64,000 bases of DNA from Ignavibacteria bacterium (GTDB lineage: Bacteria; Bacteroidota; Ignavibacteria; DATCTW01), in NCBI GenBank assembly GCA_036567745.1, contig DATCTW010000054.1, positions 37,488 to 101,487 of the forward strand. The letters run 5' to 3'. How positions within the stretch are numbered: the stretch's first letter is position 1; every line of letters starts with the position of its first letter. Below are positions 18,938-48,822 of this stretch, one piece after another. The notes under the pieces are model-generated. The model saw nothing but the letters and a program-made list of their open reading frames with translations, searched no databases and was not told where the DNA came from. Made by a program: the position numbers and the translations under genes.

Positions 18938-18955
18938 TCACAAAGAGGCTATAAA

Positions 18956-19726: not shown

Positions 19727-19747
19727 ATAATCGGGAGTAAGAATTAA

Positions 19748-20590: not shown

Positions 20591-20633
20591 ACAACTAATA
20601 TGTTTAATATGGCAAAATTTTAGGAGATTTAAA

Positions 20634-21755: not shown

Positions 21756-21804
21756 TTTAAGATACAATCTTAAATCATTATGTAGATGTTTTGGGAGATA
21801 AGAT

Positions 21805-23844: not shown

Positions 23845-23888
23845 ATGAAAATATGAAAATAAAAATAAAGATGTGGAGTTCGATTATT

Positions 23889-28433: not shown

Positions 28434-28465
28434 TGAAATACCCTTTCGGATTAAAAACTTATGTT

Positions 28466-29965
28466 TTAATTTGTTATTATTAATCTTTCTACAATTTTAG
28501 CAGAAGAAATTACACCTGGCAACCCTGCTCCAGGGTGAGTTCCTGCACCAACAAAAAACAAGTTTTCAATATCTTCACTTTTATTATGAGGTCTAAACCA
28601 AGCGGATTGAGTTAATGTTGGTTGAAAAGAAAAAGCAGACCCCAAATAACAATTATAATGATTTCTGAAGAATACTGGATCAATGTGAAATTTAACAGAT
28701 ATATTATTTTTTAAGTCTGGTAAGTAATTTTTCTCCAGAAAATCAATTATTTTTTCAGAGTATTCTAAAGATACTTTATTCCAATTAATATCTGCTTTAA
28801 GATTTGGAACAGGAGATAATGCATAAAAAAGTGAAGTGCCATGAGGAGCTATAGATTTATCATGTTTAGTTGGCATATAAACATAAAGTGAAAAATCATC
28901 TGGTAAACTCTTCCCATTAAATATTTCGTTAATTAATTCCTTATAGCGTTTCGATAAAATAATATTATGGTGTTCGAGAGTAGAATCAGAATAATCTTTA
29001 TTTGCACCAAAGTAAAGAACAAATAGGGACATACTATGTTTCATTTTATCAATTTTTGTGCTTGAATATTTTTTTAATACTCTTTGATTTACCATATTTA
29101 GATAAGTATAAGAAATGTCAGAATTTGCGATAATGTAATCTGCATTAATAATTTTACCATCAAATAATTTGATACCCTGTGCTCTTTTGCCCTGTAGAGT
29201 TATTTCTTTTACTTCAGTATTATATTCTATCTTGCCACCTAAATCATAGATTAGCTTTTCAAGAGCTTTGACAAGTGCACCCAAACCTCCTTCTGCATAG
29301 TGAACACCCCACCTACGTTCGAGATAGTGAATCAGCGAATAAATTGAGGAGGTATTGAACGGATTTCCTCCTATAAGTAATGGATGAAAAGTAAAACATC
29401 TTCGCAAAAATTCGTTTTCTATGTAACTTGATACATACTTATAAACACTTTTGTATGATTTCAACCAAATAAGATGTGGTGCAACCTTTAGCATGTCGGA
29501 GAATTTTAAAAATGGTTTATCTGCTAATTCTACAAAACCTTTTTCAAAAATTGGCTTAGTTTTTTCAATAAATTTATCATATCCATATATGTCGTTATAA
29601 TTAAACTTTGAGATTTGAGCATGAATAAAATCATCTTCTGAATTGTATTCAAAGTATTTACCATCTTCATTAAATATTCTATAAAAAGGGTTAAGAGGTT
29701 TAAGAGATACATAATTATTAATATCTTTATCAGCTAAACTAAAAAGTTCCTCTAACAAAAAGGGAGCGGTAATGACTGTTGGGCCAGCATCAAACTTGAA
29801 TCCGTTTTTTTCAAATACGTACGCTTTTCCACCTGGTTTATTTTGTTTTTCAAATATCGTTACGTCATAGCCACGGGCAAGCAATCTGATAGCTACAGAT
29901 AATCCCCCAAAACCACTACCAATAATTACTATTTTTTTGGACATTTTTTCTTCGAGTACTCCCAA
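28466..29965 (-). CDS. crtI: phytoene desaturase
   Basis: N-terminal FAD fold 'IVIIGSGFGGLSVAIRL...GGKA'; C-terminal 'FFVGAGTHPGAGLPGV' typical of CrtI. Confidence 0.85.
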   Translation of the reverse strand: MGVLEEKMSKKIVIIGSGFGGLSVAIRLLARGYDVTIFEKQNKPGGKAYVFEKNGFKFDAGPTVITAPFLLEELFSLADKDINNYVSLKPLNPFYRIFNEDGKYFEYNSEDDFIHAQISKFNYNDIYGYDKFIEKTKPIFEKGFVELADKPFLKFSDMLKVAPHLIWLKSYKSVYKYVSSYIENEFLRRCFTFHPLLIGGNPFNTSSIYSLIHYLERRWGVHYAEGGLGALVKALEKLIYDLGGKIEYNTEVKEITLQGKRAQGIKLFDGKIINADYIIANSDISYTYLNMVNQRVLKKYSSTKIDKMKHSMSLFVLYFGANKDYSDSTLEHHNIILSKRYKELINEIFNGKSLPDDFSLYVYMPTKHDKSIAPHGTSLFYALSPVPNLKADINWNKVSLEYSEKIIDFLEKNYLPDLKNNISVKFHIDPVFFRNHYNCYLGSAFSFQPTLTQSAWFRPHNKSEDIENLFFVGAGTHPGAGLPGVISSAKIVERLIITN

Positions 29966-30231
29966 ATTATTAAATTAAAGTATATTAAACTGAACCCAAA
30001 CAAAAAATCTTCTACAGGTATGCTAAAAATTCTTAAGCCTAGATTGAAATCAGAATTGTAGAGAACTATTGGTCTACTTGTTAAGTAGCCATTTACAATA
30101 AGCATAAAAATAATCATTACTAACCAAAAAATTGCAAAACTTCTTTTTCTAAACAAAAAAGTTTTAAGTTTTAGATCCAGTAAAAAAGCTATAAAAGTTG
30201 ATATTATTGTTAAAAAAGTATACTCTTTCAA
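29929..30231 (-). CDS. lycopene cyclase domain protein (heterodimeric CrtYcd-type subunit)
   Basis: About 100-aa membrane protein with 'PVEDFLFGFSLIYFNLIIWE' (PxE(E/D) motif); adjacent paralogous half. Confidence 0.7.
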   Translation of the reverse strand: MKEYTFLTIISTFIAFLLDLKLKTFLFRKRSFAIFWLVMIIFMLIVNGYLTSRPIVLYNSDFNLGLRIFSIPVEDFLFGFSLIYFNLIIWEYSKKKCPKK

Positions 30232-30536
30232 TTCTCTTTAGTATAATATTTTACACTTTCCCAAACGAATAAAGATACAAAAGGTATAATTATAAAAAAT
30301 AAAATTTCTTCAATCGGTATATTAAATACAAAAATATTAACAATTTTATCTAAAGCAAAGTTCCAATGGCCCCTTTGAATTGCAAAATAATCCCAAGTGA
30401 GATATAAAATTAAAGGTATAATAATAGAAAAAAATAATGGTTGTAAGTTACGATAGAATTTTAGTTCTTTACTAAAACTCATTATCAGTGGAATAATTAA
30501 AGTAAATCCTAATACTAAAAGATATTCATATTGCAT
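30228..30536 (-). CDS. lycopene cyclase domain protein (second CrtYcd-type subunit)
   Basis: About 102-aa membrane protein with 'PIEEILFFIIIPFVSLFVWE'; overlaps neighbours by a few nt (operon). Confidence 0.7.
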   Translation of the reverse strand: MQYEYLLVLGFTLIIPLIMSFSKELKFYRNLQPLFFSIIIPLILYLTWDYFAIQRGHWNFALDKIVNIFVFNIPIEEILFFIIIPFVSLFVWESVKYYTKEN

Positions 30537-31323
30537 CTTTATACTTTCTTTTAATTGTCCTTATTACTGAAATCATAAGTAAAAAACCAGCTAAAGTATA
30601 AAGCCAGTATCCATTTGCTAAATTAATAATTAAAAATTGTAAAATTAAAATTATCATTAGCAATGAAGGTAAAGAAATAATATTAAAATTATTCAATGGT
30701 AGAAATTTTATGCTTCTATTTAACATATAAACAAAAGTAAAACCCATTATAAACCATGTAAGAAAGTTTTGAAACGGTATAAAATTATTTTTCCAGATCC
30801 AATATTTATTTATAAAAGAACCAAAAGGTTCTAACATAATATCAAAAGATAAAATGATAAAAGCAGCACTTAAAGGAATTGTAAAACTATTTTTAGGATT
30901 AGGTATTAAATATCGACAAATCAAGAAAGAATTTATCACAATATAAAGCCATGATAGAGTTATTGCAAGAGGAACAGAGCCTGGTAGAAAAGGGATAAAA
31001 TATTCTGAATAGTAATACTCACCAAAAAGGTACCCGGTTTTTAAACCAATTGCTTCAAGAGCTGTAGAAAGTATAAATATAGCACCAACAAAAAAAATAC
31101 TTGTGATCTTTTCTGTTATCGAAACGAAATAAAGTATCGAAATAACTGCTATTATTGATAAATATAAGGATGCCACCCAAAAGAAATTTTCAGTTATTAA
31201 ACCTCTTAACATAAAAATTATACCAAAAGGAAATAAGATAAGGAGTAGAATAAATAGGAACTTAATTGTTATAGCTAATATTCGATTATTATTTGGAATT
31301 ATTATATTCAGTATAGAATTCAT
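30526..31323 (-). CDS. polytopic membrane protein in the carotenoid operon (candidate CruF-like carotenoid 1',2'-hydratase)
   Basis: Six to eight predicted TM helices; functional guess rests on position in the operon only. Confidence 0.35.
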   Translation of the reverse strand: MNSILNIIIPNNNRILAITIKFLFILLLILFPFGIIFMLRGLITENFFWVASLYLSIIAVISILYFVSITEKITSIFFVGAIFILSTALEAIGLKTGYLFGEYYYSEYFIPFLPGSVPLAITLSWLYIVINSFLICRYLIPNPKNSFTIPLSAAFIILSFDIMLEPFGSFINKYWIWKNNFIPFQNFLTWFIMGFTFVYMLNRSIKFLPLNNFNIISLPSLLMIILILQFLIINLANGYWLYTLAGFLLMISVIRTIKRKYKDAI

Positions 31324-33811: not shown

Positions 33812-35464
33812 ATGACAACAAAATCAATTTCTGCACCGCGTGGTATAAAATTAACTTGCAAAGGATGGCTACAAGAAGCTGCATTGAGAATGCTGATGAA
33901 TAATCTTGATCGAGAAGTAGCTGAAAAACCTGAAGAGTTAATTGTATATGGTGGCAAAGGTAAAGCTGCCAGAAATTGGGAATGCTATGAGGCTATAATT
34001 AAAGCTTTAACAGACCTCGAAAATGATGAGACTTTATTGATTCAATCAGGAAAACCCGTAGGAATTTTTAGAACTCATTTAGATGCCCCAAGAGTAATAA
34101 TCTCAAATTCTATGCTTGTTCCTGCCTGGGCTAATTGGGATGAATTTCGAAGACTTGAGAATTTAGGGTTAACTATGTACGGTCAAATGACTGCAGGAAG
34201 TTGGATTTATATTGGCTCTCAGGGTATATTACAGGGGACTTATGAAACTTTTGCTGCTTGTGGAGAAAAATATTTTAAAGGAGATTTATCCGGAAAAGTA
34301 ATTGTATCCTCTGGACTTGGGGGGATGGGAGGTGCTCAACCTTTAGCTGCAACTATGAATGGTGCAATATTTCTTGGAATTGAAGTAGATGAAGAAAGAA
34401 TAGAAAAGCGATTAAAAACAAAATATGTAGATTTTAAATCAAATGATCTTGATGAAGCACTGGTTTTAATTAATAAAGCTAAAGAAAAGAAAGAAGCAAT
34501 TTCGATTGCTTTACTTGGTAATGCAGCTGATATTATCCCAGAACTGGTTAAAAGAAATTTTGTACCTGATATTCTAACCGATCAAACATCTGCCCATGAC
34601 ACTTTAAATGGTTATGTGCCTAATGGCTTGCCATATAAAGAAGCATTACAACTTAGAAAAGAAAACCCTCAGAAATATATTGCACTTGCCAAACAGTCGA
34701 TAGTAACTCATCTGAAAGCAATGCTTGAATTACAAAAAAGAGGAGCTATTACTTTTGATTACGGTAATAATATTAGGGGTGAGGCAAAAGCTAATGGAGT
34801 TGATAATGCTTTTGATATACCAGGGTTTGTTCCAGAGTATATTAGGCCATTATTCTGTGATGGGAAAGGGCCATTCAGATGGGTAGCTTTAAGTGGAAAT
34901 CCTGAAGATATTTATAGGACTGATCAGGCAATTATTGATACATTCCCTGAAAATAAATCTTTAATAAGATGGATTGAAAAAGCACAAAAATTAATTACCT
35001 TCCAGGGCTTACCTGCAAGAATTTGTTGGTTAGGTTATGGTGAAAGAGCTAAAATGGGTAAAATTTTTAATGATCTTGTTGCAAGTGGGGAAGTATCTGC
35101 TCCTATAGTTATTGGGCGTGATCATTTAGATTGCGGTTCTGTTGCTTCACCAAATAGGGAAACCGAAAAAATGCTTGATGGTAGTGATGCTATAGCAGAT
35201 TGGCCTATTTTAAATGCACTTCTAAATGCAATTGGAGGCGCAAGTTGGGTTTCAGTTCATCATGGGGGTGGTGTTGGAATAGGACTCTCCATTCATGCTG
35301 GAATGGTTATAGTGGCTGACGGTACAAAAGAAGCAGAAAAAAGACTTGAAAGAGTATTAACTTATGATCCGGGAATGGGTATTATTAGACATGCTGATGC
35401 AGGTTACGAAAAAGCTATTTCTAATGCCAAAAAGTTTAATATAAAAATTCCAATGTTAAAATAA
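33812..35464 (+). CDS. hutU: urocanate hydratase
   Basis: Full-length match to the urocanase pattern ('[22 protein letters not shown]', '[15 protein letters not shown]', NAD-binding GGMGGAQP). Confidence 0.9.
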
Positions 35465-35476
35465 ATTTGATATATT

Positions 35477-35505
35477 TAATTGTGCCCGATTTACTCGGGC
35501 ACAAT
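35477..35505. terminator. hairpin between convergent genes (possible bidirectional terminator)
   Basis: Inverted repeat aattgtgcccga-tttac-tcgggcacaatt; T-run weak. Confidence 0.4.
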
Positions 35506-35516
35506 TATGATGAAAA

Positions 35517-38500
35517 TTATTTAATAAACATCATTTTTCTTGTTTGAGAAAAGTTGTTTACTTTCAAAATATAAAAATATACTCCGCTTGTAAGATCTTT
35601 TGGTATAAAATCAATTGAATAAGTGCCAGCAGGTTTGTATTCATTAACTAATTCTTCAACTTCTCTTCCATAGATATCAAATAGTTTTAGAGATACAAAT
35701 CCATTTTCTTTTATAGCATAATATATTCTTGTACTAGGATTAAATGGATTGGGATAATTTTGTTTTAACTCGTAACTTAAAGGTATCTCATTTTTATCGT
35801 TTACCTGAACGTTGGTTGTGGCTTCAGCTAAAATTACAATTTCATTATTTGATGTAATATCATTTGATAAAACTTTGATTTTTGCATCTTTTACACCAAT
35901 TGTTTTTGCTGTAAATTTTACTGTTACACTATCACTTTGACCTTCAGCTATATTATAGGGGTATGTTTTGTTTATTATTTCAAATTCAGAAGCATTATTA
36001 CCTGTTACCGTTATTCCAGATATTGTAAGAATTGCATTCCCAGAATTACCTATTCTAAAACCACTATACTTAATGTTATCTTTCATCACTTTTCCGAAAT
36101 CAACCTTTTGAGAAAGAATCATATTAGGTGCTGCTCCTAAACCAAATAAAGGTATTAACTTTTCAGGAATATTGGGGTCATTTGTTTTTAATTTTAAAAC
36201 AGAACTATAATTCTTTGGCTCATTAGGTGAAAACTTTATTACAATTATTTTTTCTTCTGCGGGTTGAATTTGAATTGGTAATGGAATATAGTTAACAAAA
36301 AATCCATCTGCGTTTATAAGTGAAACTGAGTCAACAATAAGAGTAGATAATCCATTATTTCTAATTTTTAAAGTTTTAATAGAACTATCTTTAACATTTA
36401 CTTTATTGAAATTAAAAGCAGAATCTGATAGTGTCATGATTGGGAATGATGAGTTGCCATTTAACAATATCTCGAAAATTGGTTTTTGTAAATCATTACT
36501 TTTAATTCTTAAAATTGCATTTGCTTGAGATAAACTTGATTGATATCTTATTACAATATTATCTGATTCACCAGCTAATAATGTAAAAGGAACAGATTTA
36601 CCGATTATTGAGAATCTATTCTTATTAGTGCCAATAATGTTCAATGAATCTATCACAAGAGGGGCATTCCCATTATTTTTGATAGAAATAATAGTATCTT
36701 TATAAAATCCAGTATTGACATATCCAAAATCTATTATGTTATAAGCTAAATAAAGAGAAGGTAATGAAGCTGTTTTTCCTGTACCTTTCAAAATGATATA
36801 ATCTTCTGGTTTATTTTGGTCATTACTTGTTATTACGAGTCTAGCGTATCTTAAACCAGTATCAGAGGGGATAAAGCTTACCTTGATATTTTTTTCTTCA
36901 TTTGGAGCTAAAACTATGTTATTGTAATTTGCTCCTAAAATAAAATCAGTATAAAATGCACCATCAAGATATATATTACCAATTTCAAGATTAGAGTTTC
37001 CATTATTTTTTATTACTATTTCAGTATCAGATTTTCCACCAATATCAGTTGTATTGTATTGAATTGTACTGACATATTTATATAAAGATGCATATTTAAC
37101 GTTGGCAATAATTGGTATGTTTAATATACTTAACGATGGATCATTTGAGTTTATACTAAGTTGTGCACTCTTATTTCCTCCAGGTAACGATGCATTAAAT
37201 CTAAATTTTACTGTATCAGATTGATTGAAAAGTAATGTTTTTGGAGAGTTATTAATGATAAACCCAAAACTTGAGTTATCACTTCCAGTGAATGAAAAAG
37301 ATGATAATATTAAATCGAGGTTGCCTGTATTTGTAATGATGAGAGTTGTATCTTTATATTTGCCTGCAACGCAGTCTCCCAGATTTATTGATGAATAATT
37401 TGTAGAAATTACAGCTTTGCCTCCTCCAAAACCAGTTAAGTTGATAGTTCTTATTGGAGTAAGATCATTACTTGTAATTGTGAGTGTTGCGTTTTTTATG
37501 CCGGCTGTATGAGGATAAAATAGTATTTGAACTGTATCATTAGCACCACTCTGCAATGATACATTAGTTTTTTTATTTAATATCTTAAAAGAAACTGTAT
37601 CCCCTGTGATAACTTTATCAAATAATGTAACAGTTACATTTGTTTTATTAAATGATGACTGTTTTAGTAAAGTTGAGGAGTTGTGGATTATCAAGTTTAA
37701 AGTCTTGCTTACCTGACCAATAAAAGTGCTATCAAAATTGATTGAAGAAGGTGTAAAAGTTAAATATGATTGTTGAACATTTGCGCTTACTGTAATAGTA
37801 AAACTAGTGTTATTCTTTGAGTTATTGTTGATTGTAATAGTTCCTGTTTTTACACCTAAAATATTAGGTTTTAACCTTATTGTGATGTAATATTTTTCGG
37901 ATGGATTTAGGATTACACCACTTGAAGGTAATGTAGTTGTAATTTCAAAGGAAGAGTCAGCAGTTGCTAATCCCACAGAGAATATTTTAAGTTTATAAGA
38001 ACCAGTGTTTGTTATTTCAATTGTAGAATCTTTATTGCCCGAACCTATTCCTACGACCCCAAAATTAATTGTAGTTTTATTTGCAGCTATTATCGAACCA
38101 AATACTTTTCCAGTTACATTCAAATTTGCTGTAGGTTGATTGCCTGAATTATTGTTGAAAGTGATTGTTCCTGAAAAAGTGCCAACAGAATCAGGGTTAA
38201 ATCTTATTTTAATATTTTTACTGCTATTAGGTGATACTTTAATAGGTAACGTTTCATTTAGTGAAAACTTATTGTTACCTCCTGTATATACTACAGATGT
38301 GATAACTAATGAATCAGTTAATGATGTGTTTGTAATTAACAGTAAAGAATCACTTGGCGTAGACAAAAATCCTAATGAATCAAAGTTTATTGTGGTTTTA
38401 TTTTGACTCCAGACTGAGCTACTTGCAATTCCATTACCACTTAAAGGCACATTCAAAGTCGCCCCGGCACCACCATAAGAAATTATTAGGTTTGCACTTT

Positions 38501-40889
38501 TTGAGCCTATACTAACTGGAGAAAATCTAATTGTTATAACCTGATTTGATGATGGAGTAATTGTAAGAGGTAATGTGGGTGGAGATACTAAATGAAAAGA
38601 AGAAGTATCTGTTCCGGAAAATGTAAAACTATTTATTATTAAATTAGCTAAACCAGAGTTTGTAATAGTTATTGTTTTATCGCTATATTGTGATGTTTTT
38701 ACGTCACCATAAGATAGCGATGTTGGGTTTACACTTATAGCAGCTAAAGGTGTGGCTGTAAAATTTGCAGTAGTTTGATTAGCACTTAGATTAGTATAAT
38801 TTCTACTCGAAGGTGAAAAGCTATAATTCGTTTTGGATGGTGTTAATGTATAGCTTCCACCTGCAGAAAGATTTGAAAAAGTAAATACACCTGATGAATT
38901 TGTAGTTGTTGAACCAGAAGAGCTACCTGAAAGTGTTACTGTTACTCCACTTATAGGGTTATTACTACCATCTTTTATTGTCCCACTTATAGAATATGTA
39001 ACAGGTGAAGATGTAGACCAACCCATATCCGCCATTTGATTTAGTACAATAGAACCTGGAGAATGTATGGCTTCTCCGTTAGCAAGTGCATAAGTCATTA
39101 AATTATTTCCGCTACCGGGTGGATATGTTGATTCATCAAGGTGATAAATTGAAGATCCACCTGACCATGCTGCAGGTGCATACAATCTTGCAGTTCCAGT
39201 GTTTGGTCCATTCCACCATAAATTATTTCCTGTTAGTTGATTTCCTAAATCTGTAGAAGGGTTAAAAAATATACCGGTATTAATCAGTAGTTGGCTTGAA
39301 CCATTATAAATAAATCTATCGAATATGTAGGGATAGTGATAAGTTGGATCCCCCCACGAACCTACGCCTCCGGAATAGCTAAAGGAGCCAACATAACCTA
39401 AACCATGACATAACTCGTGCAATACTACTGATACAAAATCATATTTTGTAAATGGAGTATTGCCATCTGTCCCGAAGTACCAATTGGAAAAATCACTGTT
39501 AAAATTAGCATTTATATCTGGATTTGTGTTTAAGTTTAATCTATCACCATTAATTTTTTCAGCAAGTGCAACAGGATACCATGTATTAGCATAAGGTTGA
39601 TTATTAAAACCTGTATAAGATGTAGAGGGTCCTGCACTACCCAGTATTCCTGAACCTAATGAGGTGTATGTTGCATTTACACGAATTGGAACTGACGAGG
39701 TTATGAGAGAAGCCCATATATCAATAGCATATTGAAATGCTGCTTGTGCTTCGGCACTAAATCCTGTATATGTTACAATTATTGTAGCTGCATTGGTTTT
39801 ATTTTGTTTATTCTTATAAAATTCAATTGGTGGAGGTAAATAATATCTTTGAATTTCGTCTGAGGCTTTAACATACATATATCTATCATTGGGTCTGGCA
39901 ACAATTAATTTTTTGGGTAGTTCAATCCAATTAATACCGCCATCGGTAGATTTAAAAACAGAACCAGAAGATGAACCAGCAATAATATTATTTTTCTTAA
40001 AAGAAATAAATTCAGCTGATCTTATTGAATAATCGAAATTTGTTTTTTTCCATACATCTCTTTCTTCATCAAGTATATACAATCCATTATCATAAGTAGA
40101 GAGAAAAACTTTGCCATTAATATCTGTAGTAATAAATTTTATTTTTTTAGTTCCTAACCCATCATTCAAGGCTGTGATTGTAGTACCACCATCTTTAGAA
40201 ATAAAAATACCATTGTTAAAGGTTGTAAAATATAAAGTGTTATTATAGTTTTTGATATCAGTAATATTTTCTCCGCTTATAAAATTGTTTATTTTGATCC
40301 ACGATGAACCTTTATCGTATGATTCATATAAACCTTTTTCTGTACCTACAATTATTTTTTTATTCAAAGAGGTGATTGGAGCAATAAGAATTTTTTCAGG
40401 TAAGGTACTAACTTTCTGCCAGTTTTTTCCTCCGTCTTGTGATTTATAAACTATTCCATTATCATCAACTAGAATCAAATCATTATCAACTTGGATGATA
40501 TTCCTATAAGCATTATTTTTTGGTAAGTTAGAAATTATTTGCCAGTATTGCGATGAATTGTCAAAAGAATATATACCTAAACCTGTAATTGCAAAGAGTT
40601 TGTTATTGCTATCTAAGAATAATTTACGGATATCATAAGATTCTAATCCTTCACTGACCCTAAACCACAATATCCCTTCATCAGTTGATTTCCATATACC
40701 TGCACCCCAGGTGCCAGCAAAAATTTCTCCATACTGATTCACTACGGTTGAATATAAAGGGCGAAATTGAAGTTCTCTTCTTAACTCTTCAATATTTTGC
40801 TGCGAAAAAGAAATCACAACAAAAGTTAAAGTTAATAAAAGAGAATATTTAAATAATTTCGTAAAATTATAAATCATCTCAAACCCCAC
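35517..40889 (-). CDS. giant T9SS-secreted surface protein: N-terminal BNR/Asp-box beta-propeller, HEXXH zinc-metallopeptidase-like domain, many Ig-like beta-sandwich repeats, C-terminal Por sorting domain
   Basis: Signal peptide; repeated 'S-x-D-G-G-x-x-W' BNR boxes; 'VVLHELCHGLGY' (coded around 39395-39420); repetitive T/S/N-rich beta-sandwich modules; C-terminus 'GVYFYILKVNNFSQTRKMMFIK' typical of T9SS CTDs. Confidence 0.8.
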   Translation of the reverse strand: MGFEMIYNFTKLFKYSLLLTLTFVVISFSQQNIEELRRELQFRPLYSTVVNQYGEIFAGTWGAGIWKSTDEGILWFRVSEGLESYDIRKLFLDSNNKLFAITGLGIYSFDNSSQYWQIISNLPKNNAYRNIIQVDNDLILVDDNGIVYKSQDGGKNWQKVSTLPEKILIAPITSLNKKIIVGTEKGLYESYDKGSSWIKINNFISGENITDIKNYNNTLYFTTFNNGIFISKDGGTTITALNDGLGTKKIKFITTDINGKVFLSTYDNGLYILDEERDVWKKTNFDYSIRSAEFISFKKNNIIAGSSSGSVFKSTDGGINWIELPKKLIVARPNDRYMYVKASDEIQRYYLPPPIEFYKNKQNKTNAATIIVTYTGFSAEAQAAFQYAIDIWASLITSSVPIRVNATYTSLGSGILGSAGPSTSYTGFNNQPYANTWYPVALAEKINGDRLNLNTNPDINANFNSDFSNWYFGTDGNTPFTKYDFVSVVLHELCHGLGYVGSFSYSGGVGSWGDPTYHYPYIFDRFIYNGSSQLLINTGIFFNPSTDLGNQLTGNNLWWNGPNTGTARLYAPAAWSGGSSIYHLDESTYPPGSGNNLMTYALANGEAIHSPGSIVLNQMADMGWSTSSPVTYSISGTIKDGSNNPISGVTVTLSGSSSGSTTTNSSGVFTFSNLSAGGSYTLTPSKTNYSFSPSSRNYTNLSANQTTANFTATPLAAISVNPTSLSYGDVKTSQYSDKTITITNSGLANLIINSFTFSGTDTSSFHLVSPPTLPLTITPSSNQVITIRFSPVSIGSKSANLIISYGGAGATLNVPLSGNGIASSSVWSQNKTTINFDSLGFLSTPSDSLLLITNTSLTDSLVITSVVYTGGNNKFSLNETLPIKVSPNSSKNIKIRFNPDSVGTFSGTITFNNNSGNQPTANLNVTGKVFGSIIAANKTTINFGVVGIGSGNKDSTIEITNTGSYKLKIFSVGLATADSSFEITTTLPSSGVILNPSEKYYITIRLKPNILGVKTGTITINNNSKNNTSFTITVSANVQQSYLTFTPSSINFDSTFIGQVSKTLNLIIHNSSTLLKQSSFNKTNVTVTLFDKVITGDTVSFKILNKKTNVSLQSGANDTVQILFYPHTAGIKNATLTITSNDLTPIRTINLTGFGGGKAVISTNYSSINLGDCVAGKYKDTTLIITNTGNLDLILSSFSFTGSDNSSFGFIINNSPKTLLFNQSDTVKFRFNASLPGGNKSAQLSINSNDPSLSILNIPIIANVKYASLYKYVSTIQYNTTDIGGKSDTEIVIKNNGNSNLEIGNIYLDGAFYTDFILGANYNNIVLAPNEEKNIKVSFIPSDTGLRYARLVITSNDQNKPEDYIILKGTGKTASLPSLYLAYNIIDFGYVNTGFYKDTIISIKNNGNAPLVIDSLNIIGTNKNRFSIIGKSVPFTLLAGESDNIVIRYQSSLSQANAILRIKSNDLQKPIFEILLNGNSSFPIMTLSDSAFNFNKVNVKDSSIKTLKIRNNGLSTLIVDSVSLINADGFFVNYIPLPIQIQPAEEKIIVIKFSPNEPKNYSSVLKLKTNDPNIPEKLIPLFGLGAAPNMILSQKVDFGKVMKDNIKYSGFRIGNSGNAILTISGITVTGNNASEFEIINKTYPYNIAEGQSDSVTVKFTAKTIGVKDAKIKVLSNDITSNNEIVILAEATTNVQVNDKNEIPLSYELKQNYPNPFNPSTRIYYAIKENGFVSLKLFDIYGREVEELVNEYKPAGTYSIDFIPKDLTSGVYFYILKVNNFSQTRKMMFIK

Positions 40890-40905
40890 AAAATAATTAA
40901 AAAAA

Positions 40906-42552
40906 TTAATTTCTCATTTTGGAAAACTCACTTGTAAATTTCCATTGAGGTTTACTTTTCTCATTAGCCAACCTATAACCAGTAAGGAAAAAAACTTTTA
41001 CATTTTTGGACATACCTTTGAAATCCCACCATGGTTCAACTTCGTCGCTAGGTTGATGATAATTCTTTTCGCTCCATTTTTCCATAATTTTCGAACCCCA
41101 ACCTTTTGGCTTACCAACAAAATCCTCACCGTTAGAAATATAAATACTTGGAATACCTACTTTAGCAAAATTAAATTGATCAGATCTATAGAATGAACCT
41201 TGTTCAAGGTTTTGATCCATTACACCATACATGTTTAACTTTCTTGCTTCTTCATCAACAATTTTAAATAAGTTTGAATGCTCTCCACCAATAATTTCAA
41301 TATTTTTCGGTTCTCCAAAAATGTTTACTGCATCAATATTAATGCAGGCAATAATTTTATCGAGTGGATAAGTTGGATTTTGAACAAAATAATCTGATCC
41401 AAGTAAACCCTCTTCTTCACCTGCAGTAGCTATAAAAATAATACTTCTTTTAGGTTTTACTTTTAGGCTATTAAAAGCTTTAGCCATAGTAATTAGTGAA
41501 CTTATACCTGTTGCATTATCCAATGCACCATTATAAATTGAGTCGTTATTTATAGCTTTGCCAATTCCTAAATGATCAAAATGAGAAGTATAAACAACAG
41601 CTTCTTCCTTTAATTCTTTATCACTTCCTTCAAGAATTCCTATAACGTTTCGAGTGTTCACTTCTCTTATTGAAGATTTCATTTCTATACTAATTTTTAT
41701 GCCAAGGTTAATTGGGTAAAAATCTCTGCTTTCGGCCTTATTAAAAAGATCGTCTAAATTGAAACCTCCTAAAGATACAAATTTTTGAGACGCTTCTTTA
41801 GTTAACCATCCCTGTAATTTTACTTTAGGTGATTTATTATCTTTTAAATCAAATTGTTCTCCTACCCAGGACGATTGAATAACCTGCCAACCATATCCTG
41901 CTGATTCATCTGTATGAATTATAATAGCACCTAAAGCACCTTTTTTAGCCGCCTTATCAAACTTATAATCCCATCTACCATAATATAAACGCTTTTTACC
42001 TTCAAAAAGTTTCGGATCTTTTGAAGGATCGTTATTGATTATTAGCAAAACTTTGCCTTTCATATCTATATTTTTATAGTCATTCCATTCATATTCAGGA
42101 GCCTCTATCCCATAACCAACAAAAATAACATCAGCATCTTGAATTTTAATCTCTTTTTCTCTAATACCACTAAATCCAATAAATTCAGTATAAAAATTGA
42201 AATCTATACTTTTATCTTTAGTATAAGCTTTAAGAACCATATCGTTATTCATTTCAACTCCAACCAGAGTCATTTCCTGAAAATAGCTTTTACCATTTTC
42301 TATCCCTGGTTTTAGACCATAAGATTGGAATTGTCTGGCAATATATTGAGTTGCTATTTTTTCCCCGAATGAACCAGATTTCCTTCCTTGAAGGAGGTCA
42401 TCTGCTAAAAAAAGAACGTGTGCTTTTAATTCAATAGAATCAATTTGATTGAGTGCATTTGATAACTCTTTATTAATTTTTTGTGAATAGCCAAAAGAAT
42501 AAAATATGAATATTATAATAAAAAATAATTTTACTTTCATTTTAACTCCCAT
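40906..42552 (-). CDS. secreted M28-family peptidase with PA domain
   Basis: 'YTSHFDHLGIG', 'NGALDNATGISSLITMAKAF', 'AGEEEGLLGSDYF', 'INIDAVN'; signal peptide. Confidence 0.8.
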   Translation of the reverse strand: MGVKMKVKLFFIIIFIFYSFGYSQKINKELSNALNQIDSIELKAHVLFLADDLLQGRKSGSFGEKIATQYIARQFQSYGLKPGIENGKSYFQEMTLVGVEMNNDMVLKAYTKDKSIDFNFYTEFIGFSGIREKEIKIQDADVIFVGYGIEAPEYEWNDYKNIDMKGKVLLIINNDPSKDPKLFEGKKRLYYGRWDYKFDKAAKKGALGAIIIHTDESAGYGWQVIQSSWVGEQFDLKDNKSPKVKLQGWLTKEASQKFVSLGGFNLDDLFNKAESRDFYPINLGIKISIEMKSSIREVNTRNVIGILEGSDKELKEEAVVYTSHFDHLGIGKAINNDSIYNGALDNATGISSLITMAKAFNSLKVKPKRSIIFIATAGEEEGLLGSDYFVQNPTYPLDKIIACINIDAVNIFGEPKNIEIIGGEHSNLFKIVDEEARKLNMYGVMDQNLEQGSFYRSDQFNFAKVGIPSIYISNGEDFVGKPKGWGSKIMEKWSEKNYHQPSDEVEPWWDFKGMSKNVKVFFLTGYRLANEKSKPQWKFTSEFSKMRN

Positions 42553-42558
42553 TAGAAT

Positions 42559-43737
42559 TTATATACAAATATCACCAAGTATTACTGCTTCTTTAGCGCC
42601 AGTTGTACGAGGAACATTAGATGGGTTTCCACTTATTGTTTCATTTGCTAAAATTGCAAAGCAGATAGCTTCTTTTGCATCAGAAGAATAACCATATTCT
42701 TCAATTTTCATAACTTTTGTTTTCCCAAAATATTTTTGAAGTAATTCCATCAAGAATTTATTATGCGCACCACCACCACTTACTAAAAGTTCATCAATTT
42801 CTGTTTCTGACTTCATAAAGTTATCGTAACTGAAAAATACAGACCATGCTGTAATTTCAGTTACGGTTCTTATAATATCTTCTTTTGGTATATCTCCAAA
42901 AAGTTGTAAAATTCTATCAATATATTTTTCACCAAAAATTTCTCTTCCTGTTGATTTGGGTGGTTTTATATAATAATACTCGTGACCTTTTAAAAACTCA
43001 AATAAATTGTTATTCAACTTGCCTTTCGAAGCAATTTCCCCATCTTTGTCGAAATTCAAAGAAAAAAGTTTTTTCATTAGACCATCAATAATCATATTTC
43101 CTGGCCCACAATCAAAAGCTAGAACATCTTTGACGGTGCAATTTTTTGGTAGTACTGTCATATTAGAAATACCACCAATATTAAGTAAGCCTCTACTATT
43201 TTTGTCTGAAGAAAAAATAATATAATCAAAATATGGTACTAAAGGTGCTCCTTGGCCACCAACTGCCATATCTGCTGTTCGAAAGTTACCGACTGTTACT
43301 ACTCCGGTTAACTTAGCTAATGCAGAATTATCACCAATCTGTAATGTAGAAGTAACTGTATGTCCAAACATTTCGTATGGTTTTGGAAGATGATGAATAG
43401 TTTGACCGTGATTGCCGATTAGAGCAATTTGTGAAATATCAACACCTGCCTTTTTGCATAACTTAAATATTGCTTCTGCATAAAGTTTAGGATAAAGCAT
43501 ATGTAATCTACAAATATCTTCTACATTGCTTGTGTCTTTAATTGAGTTTTTTAATACAAATTCTTTCATTCCTTCTGGAAATGGATAAGTATCAAATTCA
43601 ATTTGTTCAAACTTGGTGTTTCTGCCATTTCCATGAACTTTTAATAATACTACGTCAATTCCATCTACTGATGTGCCAGACATTAAACCTATTATAAGTT
43701 TAGGATCTTTTTTAAATAATTCTTCTAATTTTTTCAT
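42559..43737 (-). CDS. anmK: anhydro-N-acetylmuramic acid kinase
   Basis: N-terminal 'IGLMSGTSVDGIDVVLL' and overall AnmK-family layout. Confidence 0.85.
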   Translation of the reverse strand: MKKLEELFKKDPKLIIGLMSGTSVDGIDVVLLKVHGNGRNTKFEQIEFDTYPFPEGMKEFVLKNSIKDTSNVEDICRLHMLYPKLYAEAIFKLCKKAGVDISQIALIGNHGQTIHHLPKPYEMFGHTVTSTLQIGDNSALAKLTGVVTVGNFRTADMAVGGQGAPLVPYFDYIIFSSDKNSRGLLNIGGISNMTVLPKNCTVKDVLAFDCGPGNMIIDGLMKKLFSLNFDKDGEIASKGKLNNNLFEFLKGHEYYYIKPPKSTGREIFGEKYIDRILQLFGDIPKEDIIRTVTEITAWSVFFSYDNFMKSETEIDELLVSGGGAHNKFLMELLQKYFGKTKVMKIEEYGYSSDAKEAICFAILANETISGNPSNVPRTTGAKEAVILGDICI

Positions 43738-43791
43738 TTTATTTTATTAAATTAGTTTGTATTATATTTTTTAAAATTATTTAGTTTCTTT

Positions 43792-44646
43792 ATGAAAACA
43801 TTACTATTAGGTGCTCATTGCTCAACAGAAGGTGGCCTTCATACCGCATTTGATAGAGCAGAAAAAATTCAAGCAACAGCCATTCAAATTTTTACTCAAA
43901 ATGCCAGACAGTGGCATGCTTCGACTATTGAACCATATCAAGTTGAAATTTACAAATTAAGAAAATTAAAGTCAAAGGTTAAAATTATTATATCTCATGA
44001 TAGCTATTTAATAAATTTGTGTGCTAAAGATAATAATGTTCATAAAAAATCTGAGATAGCTTTTAAAAATGAAATAATTAGATGTAATTTGTTAGATATT
44101 AGATTGCTTGTGTTTCATCCAGGGTCACATTTAGGCCAGGGTGAAGAATATGGATTAAAAAAGATTGCAGATACCTTAAATAAACTTCATCAAGAAACAA
44201 AGAATTGTAATGTAATTTCAGTTGTAGAAACTACTTCTGGACAGGGTACGAATTTAGGTTATAAATTTGAACACATTAATCAAATTATTGAGATGATAGA
44301 AAATAAAAGCAGAATAGGTGTGTGTATAGATTCTTGCCATATTTTTTCTGCGGGTTATGATATTCGAGATGAAAAAAAATATTCAATGACCATAAAATTA
44401 TTTGACGAAATAATAGGATTGAAATACCTAAAGGTAATTCATCTTAATGACTCAAAAAGTGATTTTGGTTCAAGAGTTGATAGACATGAACATATTGGAA
44501 AAGGAAAAATTGGAGTAAAACCATTTTCATATTTCATGAATGATAAAAGATTTATAAATATCCCAAAGATTATTGAGACACCAAAAGGTAAGGATTTAAA
44601 AGAGGATATAGTAAATTTAAAATTATTAAGTAAATTGATTAAATAG
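43792..44646 (+). CDS. nfo: endonuclease IV (AP endonuclease, TIM barrel)
   Basis: 'LLGAHCSTEGGL...AIQIFTQNARQWH' and His/Asp/Glu metal-ligand blocks of Nfo. Confidence 0.85.
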   Translation: MKTLLLGAHCSTEGGLHTAFDRAEKIQATAIQIFTQNARQWHASTIEPYQVEIYKLRKLKSKVKIIISHDSYLINLCAKDNNVHKKSEIAFKNEIIRCNLLDIRLLVFHPGSHLGQGEEYGLKKIADTLNKLHQETKNCNVISVVETTSGQGTNLGYKFEHINQIIEMIENKSRIGVCIDSCHIFSAGYDIRDEKKYSMTIKLFDEIIGLKYLKVIHLNDSKSDFGSRVDRHEHIGKGKIGVKPFSYFMNDKRFINIPKIIETPKGKDLKEDIVNLKLLSKLIK

Positions 44647-45923: not shown

Positions 45924-48326
45924 TTAAAGGTTTTCTGTAGTCTTTTTAAGTGAAGCAGAGGTTTCAAAGAATTCTTTCATTGTTAAACTCTTCAAATATA
46001 CAATACCTCTTGTTGCTCGATAAAGAGGATGCTTATTCTCATAGAAAAATTCTCTACCTAAACACCTTTTAATAGTTTGATATTGTTCTACTTGTATTTC
46101 TTGAGCTAATTCAGAAAATGGGCCATCATGTTCATAACTTGGGAAAGAAGCACCTTTTTGAGAAGCAAAGGCATTCATAAACGAGTTTTCTAAAACAGCA
46201 AACATGTTCAATGATACAGGTACATATAAGTTTGCTTCTGATGGATGAAACCTAAACCAAACATTTCTATAACCCCAAATTTCAATATCATCTCTTCCTG
46301 TTTCCTGTTGATAAAGTTTAAGGGCTTCAGTAATTACTTGCAATACTTTGTAATGTGTATCAGGCCCGCTTGCTTCAGGATCTAATGCAAGAGAAACTAC
46401 ATTGGGATTTACCTCTCTTAAAAGATTTAAGAAAGGTATAACATCACGATCAACTGTTGGTTCTTCTGTAAAAATATCCCCTTTGTAGAAACCTAATCTT
46501 AGATGATGAATTGAAGAAGAATTAAAACCAAGATAGCCCCATAAACAATCAGCTTCCCATTCTCGAATCATTCCTTTTAGTCTTTGAATATGAGGTAAAT
46601 CTTTTTTACCAGGATATTGCGTCTGAAAGTAATTCATTAATTCAACTATTCTATTTTTCAGATTGTCAATATTATCGTCTTCAAAAATACAAAATAAAAT
46701 TGAGAGTAATCTTCTGGCTTCTCCTTCATCTTTCATTATTTCTTTATTTGCTGCTACTCCATCAAGATATTGCCAAACATCTCTATTTCTGCCATTTGTA
46801 TTTTTAGGATTGAAGTAACCCTCATTTATTAATTTATCGAATGTGCCTTTTTCAAGAAATTTTTTTAGTTTTAATAAAAGATTATATACATGATTATTAG
46901 TAACAGCATTAAATCCACTTGTTAAGGTTGCAAAGTGATGTGTGTTTGATGAATCCCTTGTATTTCTGACGATATATGCTAAATATCCTAACATCAAATC
47001 ATCATGATGAGGTTCTGTATGCAGAAAAACCTGATTTTTTCTTGGGAATGCACCTCTTTCAAACTTTGAAATAATTCTTTCAGTAACAAATTTATTGAGG
47101 GTTTTATAGCTTTCTCCTCTTTTACTTAATATGGTTGAGCAAAAACGATTGCTTTCATAGTCATTTAATGTTAAATCATTAATTCTTTTATTTTTCTCTA
47201 AAGCTAAATCAATAACATATTGCTCTACCATTTCATCAGTAATTGTATCAAGTTTTGTAAGATTCTCATATTGTCTTTCGACTAATTTTACGGCTGCCCC
47301 TTTAGTTAGATAAAATCTTGCATTATCCAGGTCTTGTAAAACAGTTGCAGGGTAGTGAATATGTTTTTTGTTTTGGATTGCATTTGCAACAACTTTTGCT
47401 TTTGCTTCTCCTGCTGCAATTATGATTGCTGTACAGTTTTGATTGTAAGTAATAGTTGAAAGACCGATAGTAATCACCAAACGTTTTCGCGATACTTCGA
47501 TACCACCCAGATCGCCTGCTGCTGCAGCTTGAGTCTCATAGTTCGTAGGTGTTAATCTTGTGGTTGAAAAGAAATCAGAACCTTGAACATTGAACCCTAT
47601 ATGTCCATCAGGACCAATACCACCAAGAAAGAAACCTAACCCTCCTAAATTTCTTATTCTTTCTTCATATTCTGCACACCATTGATCGACATTTTCTAAC
47701 ACTTGTTTTTGTAGTCTTTCAAGATTTGTTTTGCCATGTCTATAACGTAAAGATAGATCCACAGTCTGATCTGGCCATACATCATCAAGATCTATACCTT
47801 TTGGTAAACCAATTTTATTGCAATCAATGAGCAATGATTTAGCTTTATCAAACCCAAAACCATCTATATAAAATTTGTTTACATAATAATAAAAACTGTT
47901 GTGATGTTGAGGATGTATTGGATAAAATTCATCTATTTGTACAAAGTGAAGACTATGAAAATCAGGTTTAGTAGAAGGATCAATACCTTCAGTTTCTAAT
48001 TCTTTTTGAACTTCAGGTTTATCCCAGTTATTTTTATAATATGTTACCCATTTTATGAAATGTTCTGGTGTTTTACCAGTAGGTAAAGAAACAACTCCAC
48101 CTCTATTTTGTTGAACCCATTCAATAAACCTTAAAGCTGTTAATTTTCCCAAAGAAGGGAAATTATCTACAACAATTACTCCGATTTTCTCAGTAGGTGA
48201 ATAAATTAATTTTTGATTTGATCGATTTAACGCGTTTTGTTCAACTATTGAATTTGTATTCTGTGAATTCATTTTTTTCCTTAAAAAATATTTAACATTT
48301 TTTATTAATTTAAAAAAAATTAACAA
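45924..48326 (-). CDS. fused glucosamine-6-phosphate deaminase-like (NagB fold) / PIG-L (LmbE-like) deacetylase-domain protein
   Basis: N-terminal 'GVVSLPTGKTPEHF' NagB/6-phosphogluconolactonase-type motif; downstream 'LHTEPHHDDLMLGY' resembling the PIG-L 'HPDDE' zinc site; 800 aa. Confidence 0.6.
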   Translation of the reverse strand: MLIFFKLIKNVKYFLRKKMNSQNTNSIVEQNALNRSNQKLIYSPTEKIGVIVVDNFPSLGKLTALRFIEWVQQNRGGVVSLPTGKTPEHFIKWVTYYKNNWDKPEVQKELETEGIDPSTKPDFHSLHFVQIDEFYPIHPQHHNSFYYYVNKFYIDGFGFDKAKSLLIDCNKIGLPKGIDLDDVWPDQTVDLSLRYRHGKTNLERLQKQVLENVDQWCAEYEERIRNLGGLGFFLGGIGPDGHIGFNVQGSDFFSTTRLTPTNYETQAAAAGDLGGIEVSRKRLVITIGLSTITYNQNCTAIIIAAGEAKAKVVANAIQNKKHIHYPATVLQDLDNARFYLTKGAAVKLVERQYENLTKLDTITDEMVEQYVIDLALEKNKRINDLTLNDYESNRFCSTILSKRGESYKTLNKFVTERIISKFERGAFPRKNQVFLHTEPHHDDLMLGYLAYIVRNTRDSSNTHHFATLTSGFNAVTNNHVYNLLLKLKKFLEKGTFDKLINEGYFNPKNTNGRNRDVWQYLDGVAANKEIMKDEGEARRLLSILFCIFEDDNIDNLKNRIVELMNYFQTQYPGKKDLPHIQRLKGMIREWEADCLWGYLGFNSSSIHHLRLGFYKGDIFTEEPTVDRDVIPFLNLLREVNPNVVSLALDPEASGPDTHYKVLQVITEALKLYQQETGRDDIEIWGYRNVWFRFHPSEANLYVPVSLNMFAVLENSFMNAFASQKGASFPSYEHDGPFSELAQEIQVEQYQTIKRCLGREFFYENKHPLYRATRGIVYLKSLTMKEFFETSASLKKTTENL

Positions 48327-48641: not shown

Positions 48642-48715
<74 letters not shown>

Positions 48716-48719
48716 CAAT

Positions 48720-48822
48720 GAGGTCAAGTCCTGTGCAATTAAGAGTTGCCAAACCCCGTCAGGTCCGGAAGGAAGCAGCGGTAGGCAAATTTCTAATGTG
48801 ACGCAGGTAAACTTGGCCTCTT
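48720..48822 (+). ncRNA. ffs: small signal recognition particle RNA (4.5S-type)
   Basis: Contains conserved domain IV core 'GTCAGGTCCGGAAGGAAGCAGC'; 5' GAGGTCAAGT pairs with 3' ACTTGGCCTC to close the hairpin; followed by an 8-T run. Confidence 0.7.

Follow-up and report, generated by a model that had tools for sequence, protein, structure and literature searches.

A probable T9SS-exported, stalk-mounted zinc endopeptidase with a predicted leishmanolysin-like metzincin module from an uncultured Ignavibacteria bacterium

Karilysin and mirolysin (the latter PDB 6R7U) of Tannerella forsythia are cargo proteins of the type IX secretion system (T9SS). Together with the T9SS-dependent M36 and the M6-like families of NCBIfam, they provide the comparison set of T9SS-secreted multidomain metzincins of Bacteroidota, and their own catalytic families are M10 or M43. 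Leishmanolysin (GP63; MEROPS M8; PDB 1LML; Pfam PF01457/IPR001577), on the other hand, is a disulfide-rich protein (19 Cys) with a Cys-switch propeptide and a GPI anchor, found in eukaryotic hosts. A large insert between the Gly of the zinc-binding motif and the third His is a distinctive aspect of leishmanolysins and comprises 62 aa in Leishmania (PMC11957388). With regard to the secretion route, BLAST searches have indicated that a T9SS may occur in Ignavibacteriae (PMC5837995).

The window (i.e., the whole 64-kb stretch of DNA that was analysed) stems from a metagenome-assembled genome of an uncultured member of the Ignavibacteria and contains a large ORF on the minus strand (35517–40889), which amounts to 1790 aa when counted from its GTG start. 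Most public gene calls of this ORF choose an in-frame ATG at position 40877, yielding 1786 aa, and this ATG is likely the true start. The domains follow each other in the order in which they are listed here, after the neighbouring upstream gene:

40906–42552, minus strand: PA-M28 peptidase that has a signal peptide and lacks a T9SS C-terminal sorting domain (CTD), upstream of the large ORF and probably co-transcribed with it (PF04389, 135.6 bits)
40803–40877, minus strand: Sec signal peptide (signal peptidase I type), aa 5–29, MIYNFTKLFKYSLLLTLTFVVISFS followed by QQ, read directly from the sequence
39900–40763, minus strand: seven-bladed BNR/Asp-box beta-propeller, aa about 43–330 (profiles, Asp-boxes and structure model)
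38994–39899, minus strand: predicted leishmanolysin-like metzincin catalytic module, aa 331–632, from an unnamed sister family of NF038122
39396–39419, minus strand: zinc-binding/catalytic motif H491-E492-L-C-H495-G-L-G498 (HEXXHXXG), from conservation over 367 module copies
39141–39143, minus strand: His583 (in GSSIYHLDE), 84 residues past Gly498, proposed as the third zinc ligand
39096–39098, minus strand: Met598, proposed Met-turn methionine (NLMT), 15 residues past His583, from conservation
38757–38993, minus strand: CarboxypepD_reg (transthyretin-like) beta-sandwich, aa 633–711 (PF13620, 48.9 bits vs. a cut-off of 32.3)
35823–38741, minus strand: nine tandem choice-of-anchor D (ASH/HYDIN/Cep192-type Ig-like) domains, putative stalk, aa 717–1689 (NF012200)
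35520–35756, minus strand: T9SS type A CTD, aa 1712–1790 (TIGR04183, PF18962), followed by the stop codon at 35517–35519

The preliminary description of this DNA had read the same 1790-aa ORF as an N-terminal Asp-box propeller, a metallopeptidase-like module with an HEXXH coded around 39395–39420, roughly ten beta-sandwich repeats and a T9SS sorting domain. This layout was borne out: the only HEXXH of the protein (aa 491–495) occupies codons 39405–39419, and the beta-sandwiches resolve into exactly ten, i.e., one CarboxypepD_reg and nine choice-of-anchor D domains.

The signal peptide combines a basic n-region with a hydrophobic core and ends in S-F-S preceding Gln. Thirteen near-identical copies of the ORF are present in the databases (with 4 residues differing between the product and the database representative P0121), as is a full-length homologue with the same architecture and 61% identity (P0122), so that the ORF is neither a chance reading frame nor an assembly artefact. 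Public records name its product either “choice-of-anchor D domain-containing protein” or “photosystem II stability/assembly factor-like”, and NCBI lists proteins of this locus under HEY9188341-44. A scan for promoters and terminators from 35300 to 44000 returned sites that were no more numerous than in shuffled sequence.

The HEXXH of the module is embedded in the string VVLHELCHGLGY (coded at 39393–39428), and its signature residues were found to be nearly invariant over the 367 module copies (H491 99.7%, E492 99.5%, H495 100%, G496 99%, and G498 99%). Further downstream, His583 is kept in 366 copies (99.7%; with 81–112 residues between the second and third His across the family) and is proposed as the third zinc ligand on the basis of conservation and topology. 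Met598 recurs in 360 copies (98%; 11–19 residues from the third His). In the structure model of the module (pLDDT 94.8, pTM 0.93), the HEXXHXXG motif falls in helix 155–167. Three hallmarks of metzincin clan MA(M) were looked for and found, i.e., HEXXHXXG on an active-site helix, a putative third zinc-binding His with a conserved Met-turn, and the catalytic-domain fold; as modelled, the module adopts a metzincin fold that is nearest to leishmanolysin. The HEXXH, with its signature residues intact, hence resides in a peptidase fold, as the preliminary description had supposed. Moreover, no other part of the protein is as conserved as the module (81% identical to its counterpart in the orthologue P0122), the CarboxypepD_reg domain coming second (76%), whereas the propeller and the stalk repeats reach 54% and 42–65%, respectively.

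Searches with the module against established references returned little. Foldseek against the PDB yielded no significant match (best hit myroilysin, E 0.03), and neither the module sequence nor a 44-sequence profile recovered a relative among all PDB chains, 1LML included. Of the PDB sequence matches that did appear, one to lysine hydroxylase was discarded as chance and the other as covering only an 11-residue HEXXH stretch. No peptidase family of Pfam, Peptidase_M8 included, matched the module at E ≤ 10. The only curated sequence family to detect the module is NF038122 (metallo_LGF; E 8e-19, over the HExxHGLG[FY] region), a match by which both are clearly homologous. Nevertheless, the scores stay below the NF038122 cut-off of 80 bits, at 68.7 bits for the module alone and 52.2 bits for the whole protein, and ten other members of the module family score 54–77 bits; by these scores, the module family is a systematically sub-threshold sister group of NF038122. 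As for the peptidase family, which was to be settled by domain annotation, the assignment to metzincins stood and a named family did not emerge.

The resemblance to leishmanolysin lies in the large Gly-to-third-His insert, which is common to both (84 aa in the module vs. 62 aa). In contrast, the module is only 17% identical to GP63, finds no Peptidase_M8 profile match, and retrieves no PDB entry by sequence profile. The product also departs from the GP63 cysteine framework, having two Cys in 1790 aa (one within HELCH and the other in a stalk repeat), lacks the Cys-switch propeptide, and carries a T9SS CTD in a bacterial host instead of a GPI anchor in a eukaryotic one. No conserved Cys N-terminal to the module was seen in the family alignment, and a pro-segment carrying a switch residue was considered for the 40 residues ahead of the catalytic core and rejected because no conserved Cys or Asp is situated there; no pro-segment or latency mechanism was identified in the product.

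The putative stalk scored 326 bits with NF012200 (cut-off 45) over nine stretches, is also matched by the Pfam families Cep192_D4, HYDIN_VesB_CFA65-like_Ig, ASH and DUF1573, and was divided into repeats of about 103 aa each by means of a self-HMM. The CTD match covers aa 1712–1786 of 1790, i.e., the extreme C-terminus of a protein that begins with a Sec signal peptide. In a scan restricted to the last 89 aa, TIGR04183 (40.5 bits vs. 23) and PF18962 (32.9 vs. 27; only 24.8 in the full-length scan) exceeded their cut-offs and the type B family CHU_C remained below (21.1 vs. 27), and an HMM made from the CTDs of relatives scored 73 bits. By these profile cut-offs, the product is a T9SS type A cargo, and its ORF is the only CTD-bearing one in the window. 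Since no gene for the T9SS machinery (SprA/Sov, PorV, PorU, PorK-N) was found within the 64-kb window, the secretion route is deduced from the CTD alone. An ORF at 8163–9572 was considered as a PorV homologue and rejected, its Pfam assignment being a FadL/TodX channel and the PorV cross-hit weak.

Compared to the karilysin/mirolysin class, the predicted catalytic module is leishmanolysin-like instead of M10 or M43, the stalk, with its ten domains, is much longer, an N-terminal BNR propeller has been added, and the host belongs to the Ignavibacteria. A different set of proteins, from Flavobacteriia (P0207, P0233, P0234, P0230, and P0238, from Galbibacter mesophilus, Tenacibaculum jejuense, Costertonia aggregata, Flagellimonas, and Neolewinella antarctica), shares the N-terminal metzincin module, choice-of-anchor D repeats and T9SS CTD. 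These relatives, named “Ig-like domain-containing” or “choice-of-anchor D domain-containing”, differ in that they lack the propeller, carry only 2–3 choice-of-anchor D repeats, and have NIDO, MSP-like and other domains inserted; their aligned parts are 36–42% identical to the product.

The observations are best explained, with a probability of about 0.6, by a T9SS cargo that has a metzincin-type zinc endopeptidase as its working part; judging from its sequence, the product is probably exported by the T9SS and mounted on a stalk. It would pass the inner membrane via Sec and fold in the periplasm, after which the type IX translocon would export it, directed by the CTD. The CTD would then be cut off by a PorU-type sortase, and the new C-terminus would be linked to a surface glycolipid or set free. 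Because the anchor point would be C-terminal, the ten beta-sandwich domains, at an assumed length of about 4 nm per Ig-like unit, may form a spacer that measures roughly 40 nm and keeps the protease and the distal propeller at a distance from the cell. At the active site, a zinc-bound water would be activated by Glu492, with His491, His495 and His583 as zinc ligands and the Met598 turn below, and the enzyme would cleave proteins outside the cell, probably to acquire nutrients. The role of a ligand- or substrate-binding head may fall to the propeller.

The product might instead be chiefly an adhesin or surface-layer-type fibre, attaching to particles or cells by its propeller and Ig-like repeats, with the metzincin module reduced to a pseudo-enzyme or to self-processing only. 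Non-catalytic beta-sandwich repeats indeed take up more than half of the protein, the BNR/sortilin/Ycf48-like class of propellers usually constitutes a binding module, and relatives pair the module with cadherin, LRR, cohesin or Calx-beta domains. However, the product retains the catalytic Glu, the three His and the Met, all of which are 98–100% conserved in the family, and the conservation of the module (81%) over that of the repeats (42–65%) would be unexpected for a decayed enzyme. Moreover, many relatives consist of a signal peptide and the module and nothing else, indicating that the module is functional by itself, and we regard the adhesin reading as improbable.

Also improbable, and to the same degree, is a dedicated two-enzyme unit with the PA-M28 peptidase, in which the endopeptidase would feed an aminopeptidase, possibly within a physical complex. 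A surface-anchored proteolytic or adhesive complex had been suggested in the preliminary description, which placed a secreted PA-domain M28 peptidase immediately downstream; read in the coding direction, i.e., on the minus strand, this gene is actually located upstream. Its M28 assignment held, whereas its PA domain is below threshold by itself (17.8 vs. 23.9 bits) and draws support from a full-length alignment (32% identity) to a paralogous PA-M28 at 14942–16504. Both genes lie on the same strand only 16–28 nt apart, and the order anmK-M28-large ORF is kept in the 61%-identical relative (L002/L003) with different genes downstream, which would fit a dedicated unit. The adjacency is nevertheless absent at L024, L025 and L026, with no M28 gene beside the more distant propeller-and-module homologues P0125 and P0124, nor beside P0123, so that gene order lends a complex no support, and the paralogous PA-M28, 25 kb off, is without such a partner. 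In addition, since the M28 peptidase carries no T9SS CTD, it would remain in the periplasm or membrane while the large protein is exported.

Two further readings concern the propeller. The first 330 aa contain four strict Asp-boxes (aa 68, STDEGILW; aa 150, SQDGGKNW; aa 190, SYDKGSSW; and aa 314, STDGGINW), the family consensus displays seven AGTxxGxxxSxDxGxxW-type repeats, and the structure model has seven blades (pLDDT 88.4), in agreement with the Asp-box propeller claimed earlier. Profile scores exceeded the cut-offs for Sortilin-Vps10 (PF15902, 38.2 vs. 33) and PSII_BNR (PF14870, 28.3 vs. 27), and the structural matches of the propeller do not discriminate among functions. By analogy with metalloprotease-binding propeller proteins such as the dispase autolysis-inducing protein, the propeller could be an intramolecular domain that controls latency or autolysis of the protease instead of a substrate-binding head, which we consider quite unlikely. 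In GH74 enzymes, the active site lies between two propellers in tandem. That the propeller is itself the catalytic part of a carbohydrate-active enzyme, as a GH74 or F510_1955 glycoside hydrolase, is the least probable reading, as it is single in this ORF, scores 75.9 bits against a cut-off of 175 with the F510_1955 family glycosylhydrolase model (NF045728), and is the least conserved large domain (54%).

Returning to the zinc endopeptidase reading, the module belongs to a large family that comprises about 5,900 clusters when grouped at 50% identity and is distributed over Chloroflexi, cyanobacteria, Bacteroidota, Ignavibacteria, Planctomycetes (Gemmatales) and other groups. No Pfam model, solved structure or paper was found for this family, and NCBI calls its members “hypothetical” (in thousands of cases) or names them after their other domains. 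Among 353 sampled members, 131 have a T9SS CTD and 21 combine the module with choice-of-anchor D repeats and a T9SS CTD, cultured Flavobacteriia among them. Fusion of an N-terminal BNR propeller to the module, on the other hand, was encountered in only five other protein clusters. The domain combination, earlier put forward as possibly new, is therefore an already known one as far as the module, choice-of-anchor D repeats and T9SS tail are concerned, and rare in its propeller fusion. When modules were clustered by identity, the propeller-bearing proteins did not come together in a single tight group (P0261 and P0335 being only 49–51% identical), and the fusion may be old or have more than one origin. 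An insensitive scan of GTDB species representatives with exact peptide words revealed no locus with both propeller and module; it retrieved loci with the module only, at 42–52% identity and in one case 31%, and loci with the propeller only, at 23–32%. The literature likewise yielded nothing on leishmanolysin with T9SS or Bacteroidetes, on NF038122, or on Ignavibacteria with T9SS and a metalloprotease, and a paper found for choice-of-anchor D deals with choice-of-anchor I instead.

The single gene is of little weight, T9SS cargoes in which a protease is joined to Ig-like repeats and a sorting tail being common; as a by-product for annotation, it reveals that public names overlook a well-conserved catalytic domain. 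Tentatively, and on balance doubtfully, the module may represent a large bacterial leishmanolysin-like metzincin family, undescribed in curated databases, from whose stock GP63 and invadolysin could derive, since it has the otherwise unique Gly-to-third-His insertion in common with the eukaryotic M8 enzymes; the propeller-fused forms of Ignavibacteria would then be derived ones to which a substrate-capturing head was added. With the module recognised as a leishmanolysin-like metzincin, the secreted proteases of environmental Bacteroidota, Ignavibacteria, Chloroflexi and cyanobacteria would be annotated better, the M8 family would gain a bacterial point of comparison, and candidates for the breakdown of extracellular protein in sediments and sludge would stand out.

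The preliminary description had placed an ORF with a HEXXH motif at 35517-40889, and the minus-strand reading frame proved unbroken over this interval, encoding 1790 aa from a GTG start codon (used here for residue numbering) or 1786 aa from an in-frame ATG at 40877, twelve bases inside the ORF, where most public gene calls start. A direct pattern search returned a single HEXXH in the protein (aa 491-495, codons 39405-39419), with VVLHELCHGLGY encoded at 39393-39428, and four strict Asp-boxes within the N-terminal 330 residues. The public assemblies hold a cluster of 13 near-identical sequences, whose representative differs from the window protein at 4 residues, as well as a homologue of 1798 aa (P0122) that is 61% identical and has the same layout. 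Cluster and homologue show the gene to be genuine. The NCBI records of the flanking genes (HEY9188341-44) are assigned to an uncultured Ignavibacteria bacterium.

The domains of the protein were mapped via Pfam and NCBIfam scans, together with a repeat HMM derived from the protein itself.

Domain map of the giant protein (scores in bits vs. curated threshold)
aa 5-29 (nt 40803-40877), minus strand: signal peptide, read from the sequence
aa ~43-330, minus strand: BNR-type propeller (Sortilin-Vps10 38.2 vs. 33; PSII_BNR 28.3 vs. 27)
aa 331-632, minus strand: HEXXH module, without a match in the Pfam profile scan
aa 633-711, minus strand: CarboxypepD_reg (48.9 vs. 32.3)
aa 717-1689, minus strand: nine choice-of-anchor D units (NF012200 326 vs. 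45)
aa 1712-1786, minus strand: type A T9SS sorting domain (TIGR04183 40.5 vs. 23; PF18962 32.9 vs. 27)

The roughly ten beta-sandwiches described earlier thus correspond to one CarboxypepD_reg and nine choice-of-anchor D units, and the proposed T9SS C-terminal sorting domain (CTD) exceeded the curated thresholds of both TIGR04183 and PF18962 when the last 89 residues were scanned separately (the type B profile CHU_C remained sub-threshold on these residues). By eye, the signal peptides of this protein and of the neighbouring M28 peptidase (42472-42552) would likely be cleaved to expose an N-terminal Gln (i.e., between SFS and QQ, and between GYS and QK, respectively); descriptions of this Q-rule concern Bacteroidetes and reportedly do not extend to the entire FCB group (PMC5837995).

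In metzincins, HEXXH is joined by a conserved Gly and a third His as well as by a Met-turn (PMC11957388). In the AF2 model, residues 155-167 of the module form the putative active-site helix bearing H491-E492-x-x-H495-x-x-G498. Conservation was counted over 367 module copies in 354 proteins and reached 99.7% for H491, 99.5% for E492, 100% for H495, 99% for G498, 99.7% for H583 (the proposed third zinc ligand) and 98% for M598 (the proposed Met-turn), with 81-112 residues between the second and third His and 11-19 between the third His and Met. The suggested metallopeptidase-like module has a predicted metzincin fold with a catalytic set kept intact family-wide, and this set, together with an 84-residue insertion between Gly498 and the third His (62 residues in leishmanolysins, whose distinctive trait it is according to PMC11957388), argues for a predicted leishmanolysin-type metzincin in mode of action. 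Nevertheless, the module fell outside M8 (leishmanolysin/GP63) in the Pfam profile test, and the M8 cysteine framework is missing (19 Cys in GP63 vs. 2 in the entire giant protein). One of these two, Cys494 (39408-39410), directly precedes the second zinc-binding His (HELCH), a position occupied by Cys in 49, Gly in 267 and Ala in 34 of the 367 copies; a redox or metal-related role for it is conceivable. The conservation pattern speaks against the rival view of the protein as an adhesin whose protease is vestigial; identity to P0122 amounts to 81% in the module, 76% in CarboxypepD_reg, 58% in the CTD, 54% in the propeller and 42-65% in the stalk repeats.

The only curated family detecting the module was NF038122 ("NF038122 family metalloprotease"; 68.7 bits, E 8e-19, cut-off 80). 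Since ten relatives scanned one by one likewise stayed below this cut-off (54-77 bits), the module family is a consistently sub-threshold sister group rather than part of NF038122. A word-indexed search yielded 723 matches, and an exhaustive HMMER search of 1.84 billion cluster representatives yielded 5,855 relatives at E<=1e-3, of which 1,870 also passed E<=1e-30. Identity is typically ~50%, and most of the relatives are annotated as "hypothetical"; they occur in Chloroflexi (Kouleothrix, Herpetosiphonaceae, Roseiflexaceae), cyanobacteria (Microcystis, Dolichospermum, Rivularia), Bacteroidota, Ignavibacteria, Calditrichia, Gemmatales, Verrucomicrobia and other groups. A Foldseek search of the model against PDB gave no significant match, and neither module sequence nor family profile matched any PDB chain, so that the kinship lies at the fold level only. 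Our literature search found no paper on the family, which may have been described earlier elsewhere. Four database proteins of ~5,000 aa (P0242, P0244, P0247 and P0252) carry five tandem metzincin modules each, the first partial and the other four ~650-900 aa apart.

Home-built HMMs for module, CTD, choice-of-anchor D repeat and propeller were run over 353 module-bearing proteins, a sample biased towards the query, in which 131 carried a CTD, 23 choice-of-anchor D repeats and 21 both, including proteins of cultured Galbibacter, Tenacibaculum, Costertonia, Flagellimonas and Neolewinella. The module of most relatives begins directly behind the signal peptide (median aa 38); elsewhere it is combined with domains such as S8, M10 and trypsin-like peptidases, cadherin, LRR, cohesin, PKD, Calx-beta and RTX repeats. 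Only the window's own cluster and five others (P0122, P0124, P0125, P0261 and P0335) have a propeller on the N-terminal side of the module, and P0251 is the single case of a C-terminal one. Three of the four parts therefore form a recurrent combination, and of the novelty first proposed only the rarity of the N-terminal propeller fusion stands: the architecture is rare, not unique. By sequence, the propeller's relatives are mostly stand-alone BNR propellers (320-520 aa, ~25% identity), several with T9SS tails. A regulatory propeller is conceivable though unlikely, nothing specific pointing to it, and a glycosidase propeller is improbable, with 75.9 bits on the F510_1955 glycosylhydrolase model vs. 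a cut-off of 175 and the second GH74 lobe absent.

Two PA-domain M28 peptidases are encoded in the window:
40906-42552, minus strand: signal peptide present, CTD absent
14942-16504, plus strand: second PA-M28 peptidase (M28 143.7 bits, PA 35.4 bits), 32% identical full-length to the first

The former was initially reported as immediately downstream; on the coding strand it lies upstream of the giant ORF (gap 16-28 nt), preceded by anmK, with nfo divergent. The order anmK-M28-giant ORF is retained in the 61%-identical relative, where the downstream genes differ. A proteolytic complex with M28, as proposed, is disfavoured: predicted compartments differ, and adjacency is lost beside P0125 and P0124 (more distant propeller+module proteins) and P0123, whose upstream neighbour is a 425-aa module+CTD paralogue. 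Synteny loss, the missing CTD and the paralogous PA-M28 therefore reduce the link to possible co-transcription. The giant ORF alone bears a CTD in the 64-kb window, where no T9SS machinery genes were found. On JGI metagenome contig L026 (8535-14950), P0005 (425 aa, module and T9SS CTD) directly precedes P0123 (1649 aa, module and ten choice-of-anchor D units) as tandem paralogues of the protease module.

Elsewhere in the window, six consecutive plus-strand ORFs (18203-25388; 244, 256, 280, 407, 679 and 533 aa) without Pfam/NCBIfam match are followed by a VWA and OmpA-like protein (25466-26788, plus strand), and together they may be an uncharacterised envelope-associated cluster. An 800-aa protein (45924-48326, minus strand; no Pfam match at 1e-5; glucosamine-6-phosphate deaminase-like PRK02122 208 bits vs. 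384) may act in amino-sugar recycling because anmK is nearby. A 772-aa ORF (12344-14662, minus strand) shows no recognisable part other than a weakly matching family-B DNA polymerase exonuclease domain (PF03104 29.4 bits; Pol II model 44.5 bits vs. 570). A tRNA-Ala(CGC) is followed six bases on by a small SRP RNA (74.3 bits; together 48642-48821, plus strand). At the window edge, an Eco57I/MmeI-type N6-adenine methylase with a TaqI-like specificity domain (27-1784, plus strand) is probably a type IIG/IIL restriction-modification enzyme, adjoined by a Mg-chelatase-like (ComM/YifB-type) ATPase. A carotenoid biosynthesis cluster (27513-31323, minus strand) of phytoene synthase, phytoene desaturase-like amino oxidase, lycopene cyclase and Caroten_synth is indicated by the Pfam annotation of contig L001, which is near-identical.

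Overall, we favour, at a probability of about 0.6, a T9SS-exported, stalk-mounted metzincin-type zinc endopeptidase. By analogy with established T9SS and metzincin biology, the protein would be exported via Sec and fold in the periplasm, its CTD would guide passage through the type IX translocon, and a PorU-type sortase would remove the CTD, followed by glycolipid attachment or release. The ten beta-sandwiches would form a stalk projecting the N-terminal protease and propeller off the cell surface, with zinc held by His491, His495 and His583 and hydrolysis assisted by Glu492. A bolder reading, less likely than not, is that the M8 leishmanolysins have in the module family a large bacterial counterpart that is as yet uncurated. 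The protein itself is of an ordinary kind, i.e., a T9SS multidomain protease, with a catalytic domain from an unnamed family and a rare N-terminal propeller.
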